Both the position numbers and the translations under genes were made by a program. This document shows positions 35,672 to 46,988 of a DNA stretch of 64,000 bases, in pieces (within the stretch, counting starts at the first letter, position 1; every line of letters starts with the position of its first letter). This DNA is from Trueperaceae bacterium (GTDB taxonomy: Bacteria; Deinococcota; Deinococci; Deinococcales; Trueperaceae). The notes beneath the pieces were generated by a model. That model made no database searches, was not told the origin of the DNA, and saw only the letters and a list, made by a program, of their open reading frames with translations. Location of the stretch: assembly GCA_965213705.1 (NCBI GenBank), contig OZ243913.1, forward strand, positions 1,504,001-1,568,000, in the 5' to 3' direction.

Positions 35672-35868
35672 GCGCGGTCCCCCAGAGTGAGTGGGTACGG
35701 CTCGAGGGTCAGGGGTCGGCTTAGGACTCGCCAGCAGCGGGCGCAGTAGTAGCAGGTCTCGTCAACGGTCGGGCAGCAGTGGGGGCTCGAGGGGCAGTGT
35801 GGTAAAATGCCTCCAGCACTCTCGCAGGTATTGTTTGTTCGAGCCCGCTCTGCTAAGCGGGCTTTCAT
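35668..35868 (-). CDS. Small Cys-rich hypothetical protein
   Basis: Coupled at both ends (TAATG and GTGA overlaps); CP....CC...CYYCARC. Confidence 0.5.
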   Translation of the reverse strand: MKARLAERARTNNTCESAGGILPHCPSSPHCCPTVDETCYYCARCWRVLSRPLTLEPYPLTLGDRA

Positions 35869-36059
35869 TATGCGGCCTCCGTTTCGTCGTACCCCTCGAG
35901 CCAGCGGTCCAGTGCTGCACGCCGGATGAGCACGCGCGCCCCGGCGCGGCGGTGGGGGATGGTGGGGAGCATTTTGCGTAGCGTCATTCGGGAGAGCCCT
36001 GCATAGCGCGCGGCTTGTGCGGTGTTCATAACTTCGGGTTCATTTTGCTTTGCTTTCAT
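35868..36059 (-). CDS. Excisionase/AlpA-like HTH protein
   Basis: MNTAQAARYAGLSRMTL...IPHRRAG.RVLIRRAALDRWL; AGGAGG RBS. Confidence 0.85.
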   Translation of the reverse strand: MKAKQNEPEVMNTAQAARYAGLSRMTLRKMLPTIPHRRAGARVLIRRAALDRWLEGYDETEAA

Positions 36060-36121
36060 GTTTAGCCTCCTACAACTAGAGTTAGAGCGCTCTGTATGTA
36101 GGATGCCTTATACTGCCTTTT

Positions 36122-37210
36122 ATGAACAGAGAGAAATCTATCGGAAAATCTATAAGTTTTTTCTGGGCACCAAAGCCTTATCCTTTTCAATGGGCAGAGT
36201 CACCCGATGAGGTACCACCCTGGGACGCTTCACGGGGCTTCCCTGCGGATGTCGGAGCAGATGTTAAAAGGCGACCGGAGCCAGCCAACCCCTATGAAGT
36301 TAGTTCGTTGCGACCCTTTTTGCGCGACCATGTCGACTATGTTGACCGTGTAGAAACTTGGGAGCCTACACCTGCACCAACAAAGGGATACCCGCGCTTA
36401 ATTAGAAAATCGGTAAAAATGATGCCTCTTCCTTTGTACTACCGTCATGAAGATGACATAGTAGGTGCATTGGCTCCGCTTGCAAAATATATACAGGCGT
36501 GGCGCGAAGACAAACCAGTAAAAGTCTTAAGAAATAAAATTTTAGAACTTGCTGAACGGTATGGGCCTCCAAATGAGGCCAAGGAAAACACGCTCGAGGT
36601 TTGGCTCGAGTTAATTACCTTTGTGGACGTACATTTGAGTGCATTGCGTGATTTCAAGCTGTATGGATATGAAGGGATGTTGACTGAACTTGCATATAGG
36701 TGTGACGAACTAGAAAAGTTGAAAATCGTTGATGAGGATGCCACGCGCCGCGCTTTTGAGCTTGCAGAGAAGAAATACGACCCGTCAAAACCTCCGTTTA
36801 ATACGCCTTTGCCTGTCATGATTCAAGATTTAGGCTCAATCCAACATTCAAAATGGTGGTACACAAGAAGGCTGCTTTGGGTTTATGAACGGCTTGCCAA
36901 AGGAAATCACAGTCCTCAATCATATAGAACAGAGGTGGCAGACGACTTATTCAATTCGTTCAGTTTATTGATGAAACAAAACGATTGGGACTACTTAATA
37001 GAGTTTGCGCCGTGGGGAACTATTCTTCATTGTCCCATAAAGCCTTGGGTTGCTTTCAAACTATCCGAGTTGTGGCGACACGAGGCACCTGTGGAAGCTT
37101 GTCCTGTTTGCGGTATGCTTTTCGCACGCACTCACGGCAATCAAAAGTATTGCAGAGGGGGGACGTGTGCCGGAAAAGCCTATGAGCTAAAACGTCCTAA
37201 GCGGAGTTGA
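36122..37210 (+). CDS. Hypothetical protein with C-terminal CGNR-like zinc finger
   Basis: CPVCGMLF......QKYC....C at the C-terminus; AT-rich; TATACT-7-ATG leaderless start. Confidence 0.7.
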   Translation: MNREKSIGKSISFFWAPKPYPFQWAESPDEVPPWDASRGFPADVGADVKRRPEPANPYEVSSLRPFLRDHVDYVDRVETWEPTPAPTKGYPRLIRKSVKMMPLPLYYRHEDDIVGALAPLAKYIQAWREDKPVKVLRNKILELAERYGPPNEAKENTLEVWLELITFVDVHLSALRDFKLYGYEGMLTELAYRCDELEKLKIVDEDATRRAFELAEKKYDPSKPPFNTPLPVMIQDLGSIQHSKWWYTRRLLWVYERLAKGNHSPQSYRTEVADDLFNSFSLLMKQNDWDYLIEFAPWGTILHCPIKPWVAFKLSELWRHEAPVEACPVCGMLFARTHGNQKYCRGGTCAGKAYELKRPKRS

Positions 37211-40137: not shown

Positions 40138-40410
40138 TTAGAAGCCCACCGCGGCCTCGAGCGAGTCGGGGAGCAGCCAGGCCGCTTTCTGCAGGGCGGC
40201 GCTCTGCGCTTCGGAAAGCGTTTCTCTCGCGCCGCGAAACTCGACGCCGTCCTCTTTGTGCCGACCTTCGAACAGCCACACGAAAGGGTGCTCGTCCGAA
40301 CCGAGTTCGTCGTCTTCGCCCGGAATGGGTGTGGCGGGGTCGAGCCAGGCGCTCAAAACGAACTCGCCGTAGTCCAAAAGGTGCTGCCCTCCGTCGTATC
40401 GCCAGGTCAT
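40138..40410 (-). CDS. Small acidic hypothetical protein (leaderless)
   Basis: TTGCTT-17-TATTAT-7-ATG on the minus strand; 90-aa ORF. Confidence 0.7.
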   Translation of the reverse strand: MTWRYDGGQHLLDYGEFVLSAWLDPATPIPGEDDELGSDEHPFVWLFEGRHKEDGVEFRGARETLSEAQSAALQKAAWLLPDSLEAAVGF

Positions 40411-40428
40411 ACCTTAGATAATAAGGTA
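40411..40428. promoter_or_regulatory. Palindromic operator ACCTTA-GATAA-TAAGGT, copy 1
   Basis: 18-bp identity with 46243-46260; overlaps the -10 element. Confidence 0.75.
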
Positions 40429-40543
40429 AGCCGTCTCAAAAAGCAAGCCCCGTGTGAATTTTTTGGGGTTGTGGCTTGTGTGGCAGCGGTACCGCGATTT
40501 TAGAAATGACTTTCAAGAGCTTCAACTGTAGGGATTGGGACCG

Positions 40544-40722
40544 GCTCGAGCCCGGCGGGGGACGCCCGCTTGACGGTGCGACGGTAGCGCGGCCGTGACC
40601 CTGGACTTAAGCCTAGTCGTGAGCCAGCGGGTGTTTCAGCAGGCCAAAAACCTGCTCGCCGAAGTCGCAGGGTCGTCCGGCCCGCCCGCTTCGTAATCCT
40701 GCGGCGCTTGCCGGGTTTGGGC
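40544..40722 (+). ncRNA. Candidate structured RNA (four-way junction), family unknown
   Basis: 16-bp closing stem plus 11-, 6- and 9-bp stems in which every non-Watson-Crick pair is G-U on the + strand. Confidence 0.45.
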
Positions 40723-40834
40723 ATTGCTGCTTACTGCGCTCGAGTTTCGGTCCTGTTTCGACCGCTGTTTTGACCGCTGTTCCGACCACTGTGTCAACCA
40801 CGTCTCGACTGGGGTATGCGGTTAAACTGAAGAC

Positions 40835-41914
40835 GTGAAGAGTCAAGCTGAGGAAAAACGAGTTGCGCAAAACCTAGTTGCGCAGGGCGAAGCGGCGGAG
40901 CAGCGGACTGCCGAGAACCTGGCACCTGCACCCGTCATCGTCGTCACAGGCGCGACCGGCAACGTTGGCGAGTGGGTGGTGCGCGGCCTGTTAAAGCGCG
41001 GTGCGCGCGTCCGCGTTGCGGTGCGCGACCCCGAGGGGGCCGAAGCGTTGTTCGGCCCCAGGGCTGACTACGTGCGGCTCGAATTCGGCGAAGAAGGAAC
41101 TTACGAACAAGCGTTCGCGGGCGCTCAGGCTTTGTTCCTGATTCGCCCGCCGCAGATTGCGGACGTCGCGCGGAAAATTATTCCGGCGCTAAAAGCGGCC
41201 AAGCTGGCCGGGGTCGAGCGTGTGGTTTTTCTGTCGCTGCAGGGTGCCGAGCGCAACAAGGTGGTGCCGCACCGCCGCGTCGAGGACCACCTCAAAGCGC
41301 ACGGGCCGGCCTGGACTTTTCTGCGGCCCAGTTTTTTTATGCAAAACTTGTCCACCACGCACCGCCGCGACATTGCGGTGCATGACGAGATTTTCGTACC
41401 CGCCGGTGCCGGCCGCACCAGCTTTATCGACGTGCGGGACGTGGCCGCCGTCGCCGTCACCGCGCTCACCGAGCCGGGTCACACCTTTGAAGCCTACGAG
41501 TTGACCGGCGAGGCGTTTGACTACACCCGAGCCGCGCGCATTTTGAGCGCGGTGCTGAACCGACCCATCGCTTACGCCAACCCGTCACCGTGGCGCTTTT
41601 GGCGGCGGATGCGCGGTTACGGTTACCCGGCCGGTTACGTCGGGGTGATGCTCGCGCTCTACACCGCCTGCCGGTTCGGTCTGGCCGCACGCGTCACGCC
41701 CGAAGCCGCACGCTTGCTCGGTCGTGCGCCCCTCTCTTTCGAGCAGTTTGCCCGCGACTACGCCGACTGCTGGCAGAAACCGGCCGCCGTTCCGAGCACG
41801 GGTGAGCCGGAACCTGCTGAGCGGAAGTTTACTGAGTCAGAACCTACTGAGTCAGAACCTACTGAGCCGGCGCACGGCAAGACGGCGTCGGCACCAAAAC
41901 CGGAGGCAACATGA
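40835..41914 (+). CDS. NmrA-family NAD(P)-binding protein
   Basis: VTGATGNVG, LRPSFFMQN, FIDVRDVA; repeat-derived N- and C-terminal extensions. Confidence 0.85.
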   Translation: MKSQAEEKRVAQNLVAQGEAAEQRTAENLAPAPVIVVTGATGNVGEWVVRGLLKRGARVRVAVRDPEGAEALFGPRADYVRLEFGEEGTYEQAFAGAQALFLIRPPQIADVARKIIPALKAAKLAGVERVVFLSLQGAERNKVVPHRRVEDHLKAHGPAWTFLRPSFFMQNLSTTHRRDIAVHDEIFVPAGAGRTSFIDVRDVAAVAVTALTEPGHTFEAYELTGEAFDYTRAARILSAVLNRPIAYANPSPWRFWRRMRGYGYPAGYVGVMLALYTACRFGLAARVTPEAARLLGRAPLSFEQFARDYADCWQKPAAVPSTGEPEPAERKFTESEPTESEPTEPAHGKTASAPKPEAT

Positions 41915-42381
41915 GCTTTATCGGTAACCTCGTCGGCGCCGTGCTGCGTCCCCTGCTCGAGCGCCAAGCCAAAAACCGTTCGTTGGAAGAGTTGGCGGCA
42001 GCCCTCGAGCGCTCTGGGACGGAGGTTAAAAAACGCCTGGAAGCTGCGCCCGACACGCCACGCAACCGGGAGGTCGCCAACCACATCGTCGGGATAGAGC
42101 GCTGGGGTCAGCGCCGTCTCCGGACGGCACTCGGCGAACCGCTCACGTCCGACCCTTACCACGGCTACCGCCTGCCCGAGGACGCCTCTTTGGACGACCT
42201 GAAAAACGCCTACGCCAAAACGAGGTGGGCGACCCTCGAGCTGATAAGCGAGTTGAAAACGCAGCGGGTCGACGCCGCGCGCAAAGTTCGCCACAACGAT
42301 TTGGGCGAGCTGAGCGTCAGGGGTTGGCTCGCCTACCTCGACGGGCACGCGAAGCGCGAAAGCACCCGGCTGAAAGCGTGA
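41911..42381 (+). CDS. DinB-superfamily protein
   Basis: EVANHIVGIE, H..LGELSVRGWL.YL..HA.RE. Confidence 0.65.
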   Translation: MSFIGNLVGAVLRPLLERQAKNRSLEELAAALERSGTEVKKRLEAAPDTPRNREVANHIVGIERWGQRRLRTALGEPLTSDPYHGYRLPEDASLDDLKNAYAKTRWATLELISELKTQRVDAARKVRHNDLGELSVRGWLAYLDGHAKRESTRLKA

Positions 42382-42437
42382 CGTTCCCGGCTATTTGCTC
42401 GAGCTGACGGGTTAGGCCGCACCCTTTTCCAAAAGGC

Positions 42438-42491
42438 TCCGCCGCAGACTCGAACCGCCGCAGACCCAGACCGCCGCAGACTCGGACCGCC
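42438..42491 (+). repeat. 16-bp tandem repeat x3
   Basis: ccgccgcagactcgaa ccgccgcagacccaga ccgccgcagactcgga ccgcc. Confidence 0.8.
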
Positions 42492-42645
42492 TGTCTTTTT
42501 GGCCCGCACCGGTTGGCGGAGCCGGCTCACGTCGCTGAAAAGGCACTCGGCTTCGGCCGGTCTTAAACCGTGCATGACGAACGCCCTCAGCTTGAGCGCT
42601 CTTTCGGGAGACCGGCTGCAAGTTCGGCTCTGCTAGACTGAACCC

Positions 42646-42885
42646 GTGGGCGGTTGGATAGGCAAGGACTTAGACTTAGGCAGCTATTTTTTCTCGGTGC
42701 AAGACCCGACTGTGTGGACCTGGCTCGCCCTGGTAAACAGTGTGCTCGGGCCTTTTTTCGCCCTGCCCGTGCTGTGGAACCCCAAGCTCGGCGCGTTGCG
42801 CAAGCTCGGCTGGATAGGTCTCGGTTTTGCGTTGCCGCCGGTCGCCATGCTCGGCTACTGGCTGTGGGCGCGGCGCTCGAGCTGA
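42646..42885 (+). CDS. Small membrane protein (PLDc N-terminal-like)
   Basis: TAGACT-6-GTG; K.GW....F.LP.V..L.YW pattern. Confidence 0.55.
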   Translation: MGGWIGKDLDLGSYFFSVQDPTVWTWLALVNSVLGPFFALPVLWNPKLGALRKLGWIGLGFALPPVAMLGYWLWARRSS

Positions 42886-42926
42886 TGCCCCGGCCGGACC
42901 CCGGTCGGCGGGCGAAAGAGGCGGGT

Positions 42927-43865
42927 TCAGGTATGCGGGTTCGCGGCGTAGGGTTCTCGGGCCTGGCGTAACGCCTCGACCTGTTCTTGCGTAACGGGTT
43001 CCGAGCCCAAACGCCCAAACGTCTCCGGCCCGCCGTGTTCGTCCGAGCCGCCGGTGACGGGCAACCCGAACAGTTTGGCGAGGAGTGCGAAGTGCCGCCG
43101 CTGCTGTCGGTTCAACCGGTAGTGAAAGACCTCTATACCGTCCAGCCCCATCTCGACGAGTTCGGCCAGGCCGCGCTCGTTCAAAAGTTCCAAGTCGGTC
43201 GCGCGCCGCACGATGGACGGGTGCGCGAGCACCGCGACGCCGCCCAAACTGTGGACAAAACGGATGGTCTCGGCCATGCCCGGCGCGGCGTGCTCGCTTG
43301 TCCAGGCCGTTTCCGCCATAGCGGTGTCGAGCACCTTTGCGGCCTGGGCGGAACTCCCCACCAGACCCTGGCGGGTCAGGGAGTCGCGCAGGGCCAAAAA
43401 GCCGGGGAAGTCCGCGTGGGTCGCCAGCACGTCGTCCAAGTGGAGTTTGTACCCCAACGTCTGCAGAGTCTGGCACACGACCTCCGCCCGCGCGGTAAGA
43501 CGTGCGCGGGTGTTCGTCTCGTGCTCCAACAGCAGTTCGTGGTAAGGGTCGATAAAGTAAGCCAGAATGTCGATGTCCGGCCCGCCGCCGTGCCCGACGT
43601 AGCCCGGCCAGGCCGCGGTCAGTTCGGTGGCGGGGATGAGTTCCAAGTCCAGTTCACGCGCCAGGCTCGCGCCTTCGCGGCTCGCTCGAGCCGTTTCGTG
43701 GTCGGTAATCGCCACGGTCTGCAGCCCTTTTCGCTTGGCCCCAGTGAGGAGTTCCAAAGGCGACGAACGCCCGTCGGAGTAAAAAGTGTGCGTGTGCAGG
43801 TCGACCGGATGACGTTCGGTGTCCGACGGTTGGGGTTTTGAGGACGAAGCTCTGCGTTTGAACAT
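42927..43865 (-). CDS. PHP domain phosphoesterase
   Basis: DLHTHT..SDG, AITDH, VLAHP, GLDGIE, TGGSDEHG. Confidence 0.9.
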   Translation of the reverse strand: MFKRRASSSKPQPSDTERHPVDLHTHTFYSDGRSSPLELLTGAKRKGLQTVAITDHETARASREGASLARELDLELIPATELTAAWPGYVGHGGGPDIDILAYFIDPYHELLLEHETNTRARLTARAEVVCQTLQTLGYKLHLDDVLATHADFPGFLALRDSLTRQGLVGSSAQAAKVLDTAMAETAWTSEHAAPGMAETIRFVHSLGGVAVLAHPSIVRRATDLELLNERGLAELVEMGLDGIEVFHYRLNRQQRRHFALLAKLFGLPVTGGSDEHGGPETFGRLGSEPVTQEQVEALRQAREPYAANPHT

Positions 43866-43951
43866 CGGGCTCGAGCATACTTTACGGCTTGGACCCTGAC
43901 CGTGTTCTGGGCGGGTTCGTGTTGAGCGGGTTCAATCTGTTAGCATCGCGC

Positions 43952-44770
43952 ATGACTATAGGACTCGTTTTAAGCGGCGGCGGCAGTCGCTGTCTCGCGC
44001 ACATCGGGGTACTCAAGGCTTTGGAAGAGCGCGGCGTCGGCTTGGACGCCATCTCGGCCTGTTCGACGGGCGCGTTCGTGGCCGCGCTCGCCGCGGCCGG
44101 ACACGGTTCGGCCGCCATCCAGGACATCCTGAGCGCTAACCTGTTCAGCGTGATAAGTCTCAGCAAAGACAGCGGTCTGGCCGACCAGGACGCCATCGCG
44201 GCGCTGCTCCAGGAACACCTGCCCGCGCGCTTCGAAGACTTGAAGCTGCCGCTGGCGGTCGTCGCCGCCGACATTCAAAACGGCGAGTCGCTCGTCCTCA
44301 GGAAAGGCGCACTCGTCCCGGCACTGTGCGCCAGCAACGCTTTTCCGGGGCTGTTCGACGCGGTCGAACTGGGGGGCCGCTTTCTCATCGACGGAGGCAT
44401 CTTGAACAACGTGCCGGTCGACGTCATCAAGGTGTTGACGACCTCGCCCGTGCTCGCCGTCGACGTCAGCCAGCCGAAGACGGAACGGGTGGACTTGGGC
44501 GACAAAAAAGAGGGCTTGCTCCACCGACTCGCCGGCGCCGTGACGCAACAGGTGACCCTGCCGGTCGCCATGCTGCGCAAGTCCTACATCGTCGCGCAGA
44601 GTTTTATCACCGAGGTTCGCTTGACGATGCACCCGCCCGACCTGCTGGTTTGCCCCGACTTGGGCGATTTCGGCATTTTCGACTTCGGCGACATCGACCG
44701 GGCGGTGGCGGTCGGCTACCAGGCCACGCTGGCGGCGCTGGCTCAGGAAGGCTACAAGCTCGAGCGCTAA
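43952..44770 (+). CDS. Patatin-like phospholipase
   Basis: LSGGGSR..AHIGV, ACSTG nucleophile variant, DGG. Confidence 0.85.
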   Translation: MTIGLVLSGGGSRCLAHIGVLKALEERGVGLDAISACSTGAFVAALAAAGHGSAAIQDILSANLFSVISLSKDSGLADQDAIAALLQEHLPARFEDLKLPLAVVAADIQNGESLVLRKGALVPALCASNAFPGLFDAVELGGRFLIDGGILNNVPVDVIKVLTTSPVLAVDVSQPKTERVDLGDKKEGLLHRLAGAVTQQVTLPVAMLRKSYIVAQSFITEVRLTMHPPDLLVCPDLGDFGIFDFGDIDRAVAVGYQATLAALAQEGYKLER

Positions 44771-44964
44771 GTATCTCCGTGGTAAATTTGCTCCTGCAAA
44801 TTCACCCGAGTGGAGCGAGTACGGATAGACCGACTGAGCATTCTGCAAAGTCACCCTAGATTAGCTTAAAGCTCACCAGACCTCTTTTACAAATCCAGTT
44901 GCAACGCTGGTTGCCAGTCTTGTTGCTCAGTTGACACGGGTTGAGGGCGGTTTACTCGGCTTCG

Positions 44965-45504
44965 TTACCGCCGCGTTTTCTCAGCGGCGTCGGGGACGAA
45001 GCCTCGCGATTCACCCCTGGCGATGGAAAGTGTCTGCCAGTCGGCACCCTTAAGGTGTTTCGCCAGCAGCACGATTTGGCCGACGTGTTGGGCGTAGTGG
45101 GCGGTCTGCCGCGACAGCGCCTCGAGCACGGTGTGTTTTTGCCCGCGAATCCTCACGGTTTGCAACAGGTGTTCCGGCGTGAGTTCGTGCAGGGTTGTAA
45201 ACAGCGCCGCCCAACCCGCTTCCCAAACCTGCATCAGCTCGGCGGGTCCAAGGTCGTCGACGAACTCTTCGTCGCGCTGCCGGTCGGGTTTCTCGCCGTC
45301 ACTCGTCAAAAAGTCGCGCCAGCGTGAACGCATGTTGCCCGACAAGTGCTTGACGATGACGGCGACGGAATTGCCTTCCGGGTCGAGTTGCCGGTGAAAG
45401 TCCGCGGGCTCGAGCTGCGCCAGTGCTTTTTCGGCTAAACGTTTTTGGCCGCGAAAAGTCGCCGCGGCCGTCTCCAAATAGTGCTGTTCCAACGACTGAG
45501 GCAT
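44965..45504 (-). CDS. DUF1572 / DinB-family protein
   Basis: NSVAVIVKHLSGNMRSRW.DFLT.DGEK..R.RDEEF, HY..HVGQI. Confidence 0.85.
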   Translation of the reverse strand: MPQSLEQHYLETAAATFRGQKRLAEKALAQLEPADFHRQLDPEGNSVAVIVKHLSGNMRSRWRDFLTSDGEKPDRQRDEEFVDDLGPAELMQVWEAGWAALFTTLHELTPEHLLQTVRIRGQKHTVLEALSRQTAHYAQHVGQIVLLAKHLKGADWQTLSIARGESRGFVPDAAEKTRR

Positions 45505-45572
45505 AGACAAAAGTGTACACGAACATGTTGGCGCGGCGACCCTTTGCTAAAAACTTGGCCTGAGTCTTGGGT

Positions 45573-46217
45573 TCAGGCCGCTTCTCTGAACAGCTCGTCC
45601 ACGACCGCGCCGCGCAAAAGCGCGTCGTAAACGCCCGCTATGTACACGTCCGTCAGGTCGACTTCGATAGGGGCGTACGCGCGGTTGTGCGGTCTGAGCG
45701 AAGCGGTGCCGTCGGGGTGCAAGTCCAGGTATTTCAAGGTGGTTTCGTCTTCGTGTCTTACCGCGCAGATGTCGCCGTTTCGGTAGGGCGCTTTTTTCAG
45801 GATGACGACGTCCCCGTCTTGGATGGGCTCGCTCATTGAGTCGCCTTTGACCCGCAGGGCGAAGCGGTCTTCGCGGCCCGGCACGTTTAAGAAGCCTTCT
45901 AAGTGCTCGACCGCCTCGTGCAGACCGCCGGCGGCGATGCTGCCCAGCAGCGGGACGCCCTGCTGCAGGGTGCCGTCGTCGCCAAGGGTCAGGTTGCCGT
46001 ACTCAAACAGCCGGATGATGGGCGGTTTGCCCCGGCCTTGCGTTTGAAACGTCAGGTAGCCTTTGGTGTCAAGGGCTTCCAAGTGCTGCTTCAGCGACAC
46101 GTAGTGCATGCCCACCGCTTTGGCGACGTCGTTTAGGTTCGGTTGCCCGCCGCGCTCTCGCCACTGCTTTTTGAGCAGCGTCAACACGCGCTGCTGTGGT
46201 TGGGTCAGTTCAATCAC
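45573..46217 (-). CDS. lexA: LexA-family repressor (S24 autopeptidase)
   Basis: LTQPQQRVL winged-helix N-terminus, VPLLGSIAAG Ala-Gly cleavage site, VKGDSM catalytic Ser, TLK catalytic Lys; GTG 46217 with AAGGGG RBS. Confidence 0.8.
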   Translation of the reverse strand: MIELTQPQQRVLTLLKKQWRERGGQPNLNDVAKAVGMHYVSLKQHLEALDTKGYLTFQTQGRGKPPIIRLFEYGNLTLGDDGTLQQGVPLLGSIAAGGLHEAVEHLEGFLNVPGREDRFALRVKGDSMSEPIQDGDVVILKKAPYRNGDICAVRHEDETTLKYLDLHPDGTASLRPHNRAYAPIEVDLTDVYIAGVYDALLRGAVVDELFREAA

Positions 46218-46242
46218 AGATTCATCCCCTTTGTCAAGAGAC

Positions 46243-46260
46243 ACCTTAGATAATAAGGTA
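46243..46260. promoter_or_regulatory. Palindromic operator ACCTTA-GATAA-TAAGGT, copy 2 (lexA/SRAP intergenic)
   Basis: Overlaps TTGTCA-17-TAAGGT (+) and lies just downstream of TTGACT-18-TACTCT (-). Confidence 0.75.
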
Positions 46261-46337
46261 TTGTTACAGAGTAAGACGAACCCCGTGCGCAAGTCAAGCG
46301 CAAGACTTTACAAGTGGGAGTTTACCGGGAGGTTTTT

Positions 46338-46988
46338 ATGTGCGGTCGCTACGCGGCGAAGTGGGAGCCGGCCGAGTTTCAAAACGTGTTCGGCGTTCAG
46401 CCACCCTTGTTCGAGAGCTACAACGTAGCGCCGACGCAGTACGCGCCCGTCGTGTTGCGTCGAGGCGAGCGGGAAGTGGTGTTCGCCCGCTGGGGGCTCG
46501 TTCCTCGTTGGGTCGACAAACCGCTCGACTTTAGGGCGAACCTGTGCAACGCTCGAGCCGAAACCCTGCCAGAAAAAGCAAGTTTCAAGCGCCCGTTCAA
46601 GTCTCAGCGCTGCTTGGTCCCGGCCTCGGGCTTTTACGAGTGGCGGAAAGTCGGGGCAGCCAAGCAACCCTTCTACATCCGTTTGGAAGGCGCTGCGCCT
46701 CTGGCCTTTGCAGGTCTTTACGACCACTGGCAAAAAGACGACCAGAGCTTTTACTCTTACACCGTCATCACGACCTCACCCAACGCGTTTATGCAAAACA
46801 TTCACGACAGGATGCCGGTCGTCTTGGCGCCCGAGCACTTCGGGACCTGGCTGGGCGAGGACGGCGACCCAGGGGACTTGGAGGCCCTGCTCAGACCTTA
46901 CGAGGGTAACCTGGAGGCTTACGAAGTCGACAAAAGGGTCGGCAAAGTCAGGGAAAACGACGAACACCTGCTCGAGCCTGTAATCTAA
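46338..46988 (+). CDS. SRAP family abasic-site processing protein (YedK/HMCES)
   Basis: MCGRY N-terminus, YNVAPT, WGLVP, NARAET, RCLVPASGFYEW, IHDRMPV. Confidence 0.95.
   Translation: MCGRYAAKWEPAEFQNVFGVQPPLFESYNVAPTQYAPVVLRRGEREVVFARWGLVPRWVDKPLDFRANLCNARAETLPEKASFKRPFKSQRCLVPASGFYEWRKVGAAKQPFYIRLEGAAPLAFAGLYDHWQKDDQSFYSYTVITTSPNAFMQNIHDRMPVVLAPEHFGTWLGEDGDPGDLEALLRPYEGNLEAYEVDKRVGKVRENDEHLLEPVI

Follow-up and report, generated by a model that had tools for sequence, protein, structure and literature searches.

The presence of one palindrome at two promoters of the window (the whole stretch of 64,000 nucleotides of Trueperaceae DNA analysed here) raises the question of which repressor recognizes it and how many genes it controls. 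Our analyses suggest that it is very probably the SOS box of a LexA clade spanning the Trueperaceae, whose members are predicted to hold recA, an extra uvrA, SRAP, several small genes and the two lexA genes themselves in check until damage-activated RecA triggers LexA self-cleavage. Judging from sequence, the box and its genes likely represent a new, family-wide putative SOS operator and regulon.

Two putative operators and their genes in the window

The 17-bp palindrome ACCTTA-N5-TAAGGT stands at positions 40411-40427 and 46243-46259, where an earlier note on this DNA had reported identical copies; 18 bases are indeed identical between them. These are the only exact matches within the window, and shuffled sequence yields 0.58 matches even with two mismatches permitted. 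The copies score 32.3 and 28.5 bits, respectively; since their flanks differ, the spacer that they share calls for no special explanation. The features of the locus are listed below.

40138-40410, minus strand: gene for a 90-aa protein of a small unnamed family, likely with a leaderless mRNA (ORF and homologues)
40411-40427, no strand assigned: operator copy 1, abutting the ATG of the 90-aa gene and covering its -10 element
40418-40446, minus strand: putative small-gene promoter, TTGCTT (40441-40446)-17-TATTAT (40418-40423)-7-ATG, read by eye
45573-46217, minus strand: lexA2, 214 aa, GTG start, secondary cassette-type LexA of the Trueperaceae clade (PF01726 and PF00717; tree)
45732-45932, minus strand: autocleavage elements Ala96-Gly97 (45927-45932), Ser127 (45837-45839) and Lys162 (45732-45734), from the sequence
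46080-46106, minus strand: residues 38-46, HYVSLKQHL, a recognition-helix segment that is unchanged in the main LexA and falls on the helix-3 region when aligned with E. coli LexA
46231-46259, plus strand: putative SRAP promoter, TTGTCA (46231-46236)-17-TAAGGT (46254-46259), with the operator over spacer and -10, read by eye
46243-46259, no strand assigned: operator copy 2, common to the divergent lexA2 and SRAP promoters
46268-46297, minus strand: putative lexA2 promoter, TTGACT (46292-46297)-18-TACTCT (46268-46273), with the operator 8 bases downstream, over the likely transcription start
46338-46988, plus strand: SRAP/YedK-family protein beginning Met-Cys-Gly-Arg (PF02586, 9e-71; matches to YedK and HMCES structures)

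The geometry that the earlier note had proposed for the small-gene and SRAP promoters, with the box over their -10 elements, is present in the sequence as described. The lexA2 promoter element on the minus strand is a third one, which that note had missed; both of its hexamers and their spacing are kept in locus L080, and its -10 in the sister genome (G001). None of the three window promoters was called by a strict promoter scanner, and a perfect TATAAT with the promoter geometry of the small gene is found at a GemA-like gene.

The Ala-Gly site and Ser/Lys dyad of the window LexA are intact, as had been stated. Both clade LexAs of the genome under study (G000) match PF01726 and PF00717 above the Pfam cut-offs, and both match TIGR00498 over the full length with E about 1e-30, at 107.6 bits for lexA2 and 103.4 bits for the other against a cut-off of 110.95. 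It counts against the LexA reading that a third, unboxed LexA-like protein (L003) passes TIGR00498 while both clade members fall just short. The family-wide lexA, at G000:C1:1953436-1954062, encodes a protein whose recognition helix is that of lexA2; both proteins would accordingly be expected to bind the box, the family-wide copy acting as main repressor.

The window lexA2 is a secondary copy, a relic of an SRAP/lexA-imuY-dnaE2 mutagenesis cassette after polymerase-gene loss. Behind its 73% orthologue L080 come imuY and a 273-aa ORF for a dnaE2 N terminus, and the operator sits between the same divergent lexA/SRAP pair in L080, L214, L215 and L216. Three imuY queries gave no match in G000, dnaE2 queries reached only a 28%-identical DnaE at C1:2467120, and the window locus does not qualify as a cassette. 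Within the regulon, SRAP and the 90-aa gene occupy a peripheral place. SRAP is boxed in 7 of the 31 loci read, and it was not found in the sister genome, where lexA and its box are kept.

The 90-aa gene, called an orphan in the earlier note, gave no Pfam or NCBIfam match but is conserved; it was found in 3 of the 128 family genomes. The box stands immediately ahead of the homologue start in G001 (32.3 bits) and in G021 (24.7 bits). The protein model (pLDDT 76.8) predicts five strands and a C-terminal helix. With VIA-align its best Z is 7.0 (rmsd 2.9, 65 residues), to an MmoD chain, followed by AP2- and dsRBD-like folds with Z below 5, and the best ESM Atlas score of 0.88 provides a lead only. 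Comparison with viral structures gave none at E 0.001, and PDB sequence searches with three other regulon proteins returned nothing.

Distribution of the box in the genome and the family

The earlier note had proposed scanning the genome for ACCTTA-N5-TAAGGT and looking for the motif upstream of orthologous lexA genes. The scan yields seven exact matches in G000 with the 5-base spacer and none with spacers of 2, 3, 4, 6, 7, 8 or 9 bases. A matrix scan gives 13 sites of at least 22 bits, whereas 30 column-permuted matrices find 0.03 on average and 1 at most; this matrix was built from 13 of the genome's own sites, so that the seeds match by construction and the weight is carried by the spacer control and the other genomes. 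All bit scores given here refer to the G000 matrix, no family-wide matrix having been built, and G+C-richer boxes are under-scored by it. Only 8 of 1886 long ORFs have a 14-bit site within 400 bases upstream, and 11 of the 13 top-site genes are boxed in the sister genome as well.

The genes that follow the 13 strong sites are recA, uvrA, the two lexA genes of the clade, SRAP, those of a Rad52/DdrA-like operon and a set of small unknown ones; AAA_24, GemA-like and SocA genes are also boxed. The "mini-regulon" of the earlier note is therefore too narrow, the box being found elsewhere in G000 at recA, a uvrA, another lexA and some ten further genes. Some of the sites adjoin a CRP-family gene or an AraC gene.

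Members of the LexA clade occur in 121 of 128 family genomes (several tallies, among them those of clade LexA, DdrO and IrrE over 128 genomes, include the unpublished G111, which the 29-locus reading below leaves out and on which no conclusion depends by itself), and in the tree they form a long-branched clade of their own. The palindrome is conserved ahead of all 27 first-sampled clade lexA loci, 23 of them with at least 14 bits, in keeping with its behaviour as the candidate LexA operator that the earlier note had taken it for. It is found at 13/13 named clade lexA loci (some repeating the 27) versus 0/39 distant ones, and in all 29 loci of a further promoter reading whose genes are partly shared with the 27. 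The cleavage residues are kept in 53/53 clade proteins, three of which miss the strict pattern yet keep Ser and Lys. Many lexA1 promoters carry TTGAC 17-19 bases ahead of the box-borne -10 hexamer; where the promoter is of cassette type, a separate -10 precedes the box. LexA-like proteins sampled from families f2 and f3 fall outside the clade and lack the box.

Within the family 12 of 25 recA copies are boxed, versus 0 of 11 in other families, and genomes with two recA genes have exactly one boxed copy in 8/8 cases. A boxed recA is present in 12 of the 17 family genomes with readable upstream DNA, and cinA is absent from the locus of all 12 boxed copies; such a second recA outside the cinA operon could supply an inducible RecA pool. 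The extra-type uvrA is boxed in 6 of 8 cases, the AAA_24 gene carries the standard box in 14/15 and the GemA-like gene in 14/17. Separate genera retain a box at their recA, uvrA, photolyase and UvdE genes. On the opposing side, the ordinary uvrA (22/22) and most SRAP genes (24/31) are unboxed and no recA is boxed in 5 of the 17 genomes, so that in many genera the regulon is either small or only incompletely put together. No exact box occurs in G019, where the clade LexA was not found. In G059 one of eight fetched sites lies at a gene of the G000 set, and the exact pattern also fits TetR-linked palindromes in 4 of the 10 out-of-family loci fetched, so raw pattern counts overstate the regulon.

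Recognition helix, box and competing explanations

The box appears to change together with the recognition helix of the adjacent LexA paralogue. The 42 Val/Met-type LexAs have the standard box or a near variant, Pro-type LexAs have ACCCT-N9-AGGGT in 10/10, and Thr-type LexAs have in-register CCC arms in 3/3. Both genomes of genus g4 hold a Thr-type paralogue and CCC boxes at uvrA and the GemA-like gene, where the paralogue-type box has, from the sequences compared, evidently replaced the standard one; this CCC pattern has no match in G000, G024 or G021. Two observations count against the correspondence: it rests on two clades only, between which the tree gives no firm relation, and L368, which belongs to another family, combines a helix Pro with the standard box. 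A further point against the LexA reading is that G023, whose sole LexA is Thr-type, shows just two variant sites.

Direct observation covers the box itself, its placement on or immediately after promoter-like elements, the genes downstream of it, the extent to which it is conserved, the intact cleavage residues and the matched change of helix and box among paralogues. By analogy with the known LexA mechanism, a dimer would bind the box, repress sterically and undergo RecA-stimulated cleavage at Ala-Gly. It might be argued that another repressor, such as a DdrO-like XRE protein, a TetR or the LexA-like L003, binds the box and controls lexA and the repair genes, given the TetR-linked palindromes that fit the exact pattern, the standing of L003 above the TIGR00498 cut-off, the likewise 17-bp DdrO palindrome (PMC5552922) and the CRP-family and AraC genes beside some sites. 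We regard this as very unlikely: no DdrO orthologue was found in the 128 family genomes; the TetR sites have G+C-rich centres and score about 3 bits, and that TetR matches G000 weakly, N-terminally and without a box; L003 differs in its helix, lacks a box and, of 25 family genomes, is closely matched in G000 and G001 alone; and the box shifts with the helix of the neighbouring LexA.

There is a still smaller chance that LexA binds the box while damage induction of the regulon is absent or weak, as for LexAs without recA control, the repair genes being mostly constitutive. According to the accessible text of PMC8072749, LexA1 and LexA2 of D. radiodurans are cleaved yet recA is not under their control, and an unboxed recA is kept in each two-recA genome, like the unboxed ordinary uvrA; against this, the cleavage residues are kept throughout the clade and the box is retained at recA, uvrA, photolyase and UvdE across separate genera. 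Finally, it is scarcely credible that the palindrome is a mere by-product of promoters, its TAAGGT arm and A+T centre fitting a -10, or that the window copies arose by local duplication. The -10 hexamer often lies inside the box, with TTGAC ahead of it in many lexA1 promoters, and the window copies share their spacer, but a -10 element does not call for a CCTTA arm and a TAAGG arm with exactly 5 bases between them, cassette-type promoters have a separate -10 with the box downstream, and the box occurs in one family only and at repair genes only.

Relation to known systems and possible origin of the proposed regulon

An SOS box read by LexA would resemble the canonical RecA/LexA response in its winged-helix and S24 repressor, the palindrome at the repressor's own promoter and the core of lexA, recA and uvrA. 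LexA boxes are lineage-specific, with CTGT-N8-ACAG in E. coli, GAAC-N4-GTTC in Firmicutes, TTAC-N3-GTAA in Bdellovibrio and GGTT-N10-AACC in Geobacter, and no motif given in the accessible parts of PMC3323433 and PMC8565304 agrees with the Trueperaceae box. Further differences from the canonical system are the long-branched LexA clade, the restriction of boxed recA and uvrA to extra copies and the many small unnamed members. In the available portion of PMC8565304, the non-canonical SOS repressors of Bacteroidetes, with CTAA-N5-TTAG and GGA-N5-TCC, share the 5-base spacer and the paralogues with diverged boxes; unlike Trueperaceae LexA, they are not LexA homologues in the DNA-binding domain, and their arms differ. 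No description of a Truepera or Trueperaceae LexA box was found in the accessible literature; RegPrecise, CollecTF and supplementary motif tables lay outside its scope, and an earlier prediction is possible. The LexA box of Magnetococcus MC-1 is reportedly CCT-N10-AGG; its outer CCT...AGG arms are alike, the Trueperaceae form being one base shorter (CCT-N9-AGG), and G000 contains no exact copy of a Magnetococcus-like form whose centre is 6 bases long.

The Deinococcus IrrE/DdrO system offers another likeness, as its RDRM is a 17-bp palindrome over promoters of often leaderless genes, with recA, uvrA and a Rad52/DdrA-family gene among the targets (accessible text of PMC8072749 and PMC8533742). 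The box differs from the RDRM sites and the consensus TATGYYHTTARCRKA given in the accessible part of PMC8533742, in line with the earlier note's view that it is not the RDRM, and the Trueperaceae have a LexA of self-cleaving type where Deinococcus has an XRE repressor and a metalloprotease. An RDRM-like regular expression was left unused, as it found no site in the ddrO loci L162 and L163, its positive control. Among the 128 family genomes there was no full-length DdrO: the matches were weak and for the most part no longer than the HTH (best E 2.6e-10, limited to the HTH), whereas 3 of 5 control genomes gave full-length ones (E 1e-59 to 1e-69). Nor was there a full-length IrrE, with partial matches in 3/128 (best E 9.9e-8); G000 has one short PF06114 match. 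The LexA system would thus fill the role of IrrE/DdrO. SOS-independent recA control is given in reviews as the rule for radiation-resistant Deinococcus (PMC8072749), and Truepera is also radiation resistant (PMC4148983, as far as its accessible text goes); if Trueperaceae repair runs through LexA, IrrE/DdrO is not required for extreme resistance.

Many secondary clade LexAs lead imuY and dnaE2 (L080, L140, L146), as in lexA-imuY-dnaE2 cassettes, beside which SRAP is already known (PMC3765255, accessible part). Unlike the cassette LexA of Deinococcus, which controls the cassette and not recA, the clade LexA is predicted to control recA, and the window cassette has lost its polymerase genes. One tentative scenario, to which we would give somewhat less than even chances, is that Trueperaceae lost the IrrE/DdrO response and placed a mutagenesis-cassette LexA at the head of a rebuilt global SOS regulon, to which second copies of recA and uvrA under LexA control were added and into which DdrA-like proteins and small unnamed ones were drawn. 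The order of DdrO loss cannot be read from our RecA tree, which has no outgroup. In this scenario the turnover would still be running, because the diverged paralogue of g4 took uvrA and other targets while the primary LexA remains; should it be true, the small genes with a box would encode new proteins for the damage response of a lineage resistant to radiation. In any event, the box singles out a number of candidate damage genes whose function is not known.

There are, moreover, three helix/box pairs in one family, and one genus splits its targets between the primary LexA and a diverged paralogue. A published model of SOS motif turnover has a paralogue take over once the primary gene is lost (PMC8565304); in contrast, the hand-over in g4 appears to begin while the primary LexA and the paralogue coexist.

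The box and its genes in G000

The palindrome ACCTTA-N5-TAAGGT is very probably the operator of a distinct LexA clade within an SOS-type regulon, as indicated by the intact cleavage residues of these proteins, the position of the sites, the content of the regulon, its conservation and the covariation of helix and box. Both copies that the earlier note had placed in the window are present in its sequence, next to the genes of the locus:

40138..40410, minus strand, 90-aa gene
40411-40427, box
45573..46217, minus strand, window lexA (lexA2)
46243-46259, box
46338..46988, plus strand, SRAP gene

Across the genome (G000, a single 4.25-Mb contig) the pattern has seven exact matches, while the same arms separated by 2-4 or 6-9 bases have none. 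A matrix made from 13 G000 sites returned 13 sites of at least 25 bits, two at about 20 and three at 15-17; box centres are A+T-rich in a genome of 61% G+C, and a 14-bit site lies within 400 bases upstream of only 8 of 1886 long ORFs. Matches with two mismatches include three identical 23-base stretches (G000:C1:259311, 1782498 and 2964370), probably a repeated element rather than operators.

Genes downstream of the 13 strong sites of G000
recA
uvrA
second lexA
window lexA/SRAP pair
90-aa gene
operon of a 163-aa ORF, a Rad52-family gene and a primase-like gene
AAA_24 ATPase gene
GemA-like gene
gene of a 127-aa protein weakly like PriL
SocA/Panacea gene
ORFs of 215, 92 and 85 aa, none with a family match

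The "mini-regulon" first proposed was therefore too narrow, given 13 strong sites genome-wide, recA, uvrA and a second lexA among them, and a family-wide range. G001, of the same genus, keeps the box at 11 of the 13 genes, the SocA gene and the 85-aa ORF not being recovered among its boxed genes (15 of 17 sites read). G056, from another genus, has eight exact sites: one at lexA, which is followed there by the Rad52-family operon, and the others at recA, the GemA-like and PriL-like genes, a small membrane-type ORF and glyoxalase-like, CRP-like and photolyase-like genes. Boxes in G024, G021, G004 and G012 lie at some genes of the G000 set, at photolyase, UvdE, BrnT and TnsA-like genes and at several unrelated ones; in G059 only one of eight sites read coincides with a G000 member. 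A box stands at the AAA_24 gene in 14 of 15 genomes, and the GemA-like gene, in 17 genomes, has a standard box in 14, a half site in one and a CCC variant in two.

Several of these genes deserve a separate word. The weakly PriL-like 127-aa protein, boxed and standalone at L038:4598-4978, has 2039 homologues, with named matches in Cyanobacteria, Chloroflexota and Deinococcus. The operon of the 163-aa ORF, Rad52/DdrA-family gene and CHC2-Toprim primase-like gene (L035:5067-7430; also L210, L344 and L393) is boxed in G000, G001 and G021 and lies downstream of the main lexA in G004, G057 and G056; in family f5, ddrO stands less than 1 kb from a Rad52/DdrA-like gene (L361 and L163, G028:C35). In five genomes a CRP-family gene, which may be related to Deinococcus DdrI, is either the divergent neighbour of lexA or carries a box itself (L040:14466-15143; L190, L205, L211, L391). 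Boxes also precede the SocA/Panacea antitoxin gene (G000, L039:5042-5563), a BrnT gene (G024, L192) and a TnsA-like gene (G012, L207), so that mobile or toxin-antitoxin genes apparently fall under the same control.

The LexA clade and its probable reading of the box

The clade was found in 121 of 128 genomes of family f1, presumably Trueperaceae (78 of the 79 of good quality), and its 53 proteins in our tree form one well-supported, long-branched group, separate from the Deinococcales and proteobacterial LexAs sampled. As the reading of the earlier note requires, the palindrome is conserved upstream of orthologous lexA genes: each of the 27 clade loci sampled first has one (23 with at least 14 bits), against none at 39 distant lexA loci. 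Of the 127 other family genomes, 76 contain the exact 17-mer, with up to nine copies each; in the other four families it turned up as a single copy in 14 of 235 genomes, roughly as often as the reversed control. Genera lacking the exact pattern (g20, g33, g38) have variants of one or two bases at the same place.

Helix 3 of E. coli LexA is the helix that reads DNA bases, and the segment HYVSLKQHL, carried by both clade LexAs of G000, aligns with that region. The residue after its tyrosine goes with the box across paralogues: the standard box or a close variant of it accompanies 42 Val/Met-type proteins, Pro-type LexAs have ACCCT-N9-AGGGT in ten cases out of ten and Thr-type LexAs have in-register CCC arms in three out of three. 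Since the variant helices form two clades, this covariation amounts to at most two independent changes of helix and box. A stronger point is the match in trans: G004 and G057 possess a Thr-type paralogue alongside the primary LexA, and in both CCC-type boxes stand at the extra uvrA and the GemA-like gene, while the G004 sites at recA, the PriL-like gene and the primary lexA remain standard; the CCC pattern has no match in G000, G024 and G021, all without this paralogue. Two cases count against a simple residue-to-box rule: L368, a deep-branching clade member of family f5 leading imuY, has proline in the helix yet a standard box, and G023, whose sole LexA is Thr-type, has few sites of either type.

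Other readers of such a palindrome have to be considered. The third LexA-like protein of G000 (L003, G000:C1:4020106-4020696) passes TIGR00498 and has a different helix; the DNA upstream of its gene contains no box, having instead an inverted repeat with widely spaced arms, and among the 25 family genomes compared its only close match is in G001. A palindrome whose arms read ACCTTAC adjoins a TetR gene in families f2 and f5 (L362, L365, L367, L369), in most cases lying between that gene and one for a zinc dehydrogenase, and is likely a TetR operator; such palindromes can fit the exact pattern but score only about 3 bits on the matrix.

By analogy with the established LexA pathway, from which the following steps are drawn, LexA dimers would cover the -10 element or the transcription start until RecA filaments on single-stranded DNA trigger cleavage at Ala-Gly; recA, uvrA, Rad52-family, SRAP and small genes behind the box would then be made, several from leaderless messages. 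No published description of this box was found in the literature searched, where coverage of subscription papers was limited; the box is real and apparently undescribed, a very probable SOS operator whose regulon spans the family. LexA boxes new to science are regularly reported, 17 being counted in one source (PMC8565304), so the box alone is of modest novelty. Greater interest attaches to the regulon's apparent division between LexA paralogues, seemingly caught in progress, and to the apparent reliance of a radiation-resistant lineage on LexA.

Two recA copies and the IrrE/DdrO system

Upstream DNA could be read for 25 recA copies of the family; 12 of these are boxed, and exactly one copy is boxed in all eight genomes with two complete recA genes; in other families none of 11 recA loci is. 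cinA is absent from the loci of all boxed copies and accompanies most unboxed ones, such as that of G000 in cinA-recA-rny. Within each genome the two copies group together as closest relatives (L049/L138 plus seven further pairs) and encode an identical protein in G024, which suggests, from sequence relationships, ongoing gene conversion between the boxed standalone copy and the cinA-linked one. An extra uvrA type occurs in 8 of 25 family genomes and is boxed in six, whereas all 22 loci of ordinary uvrA are unboxed.

In this radiation-resistant lineage of Deinococcales, LexA seems to take the place that IrrE/DdrO has in Deinococcus. Searching the 128 family genomes with D. deserti DdrOP3 gave only weak, mostly HTH-length matches in 57 (best E 2.6e-10), while full-length orthologues (1e-59 to 1e-69) appeared in three of five control genomes of other families; an IrrE-like protein from G033 matched three of the 128 genomes, and these only in part. 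One review (PMC8072749) names Deinobacterium, Calidithermus, Meiothermus, Marinithermus and Oceanithermus as having close IrrE/DdrO homologues, but not Thermus; Truepera does not appear in its list. Loss in Trueperaceae is the simpler reading of this distribution, though the RecA tree is unrooted.

The window locus

The window lexA shares 50% identity with the main G000 copy. Its 73% orthologue at L080, in a record labelled Cyclobacteriaceae that may be misbinned or transferred, stands in the order SRAP, box, lexA, imuY and dnaE2 N-terminal ORF, and G021 has the full cassette with a related LexA. Because imuY and dnaE2 were not found in G000, the window locus is best seen as a cassette remnant. 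G001 keeps lexA and box, with SRAP not found; in G002 (L143), SRAP and box remain and lexA stops behind the helix domain, after 79 codons. Here and in G110 (L215) SRAP is divergent from a lexA whose match is limited to that domain, and a perfect box separates the two genes. SRAP is present in 99 of 128 family genomes and boxed at 7 of 31 loci read, five with divergent lexA; its place beside lexA-imuY-dnaE2-type cassettes is already known (PMC3765255). At L221, L236 and L238, from three genomes, a strong box just past the SRAP end apparently serves the next gene.

The 90-aa gene is, judging from its homologues in G001 and G021, where the box abuts the start, a real gene. A profile of the family found 14 proteins, five of them long and matched only in short, repeated stretches, and the predicted model has a five-stranded sheet and one helix, for which structure comparisons gave no function. 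Elsewhere in the window, 35868-37210 holds a divergent pair, a 63-aa HTH_17 excisionase-like gene and a 362-aa ORF of atypical composition without a Pfam match, which may mark where an integrated element ends, and a short tandem repeat at 41840-41870, at the 3' end of an NmrA-like gene, encodes repeated TESEP-like units.
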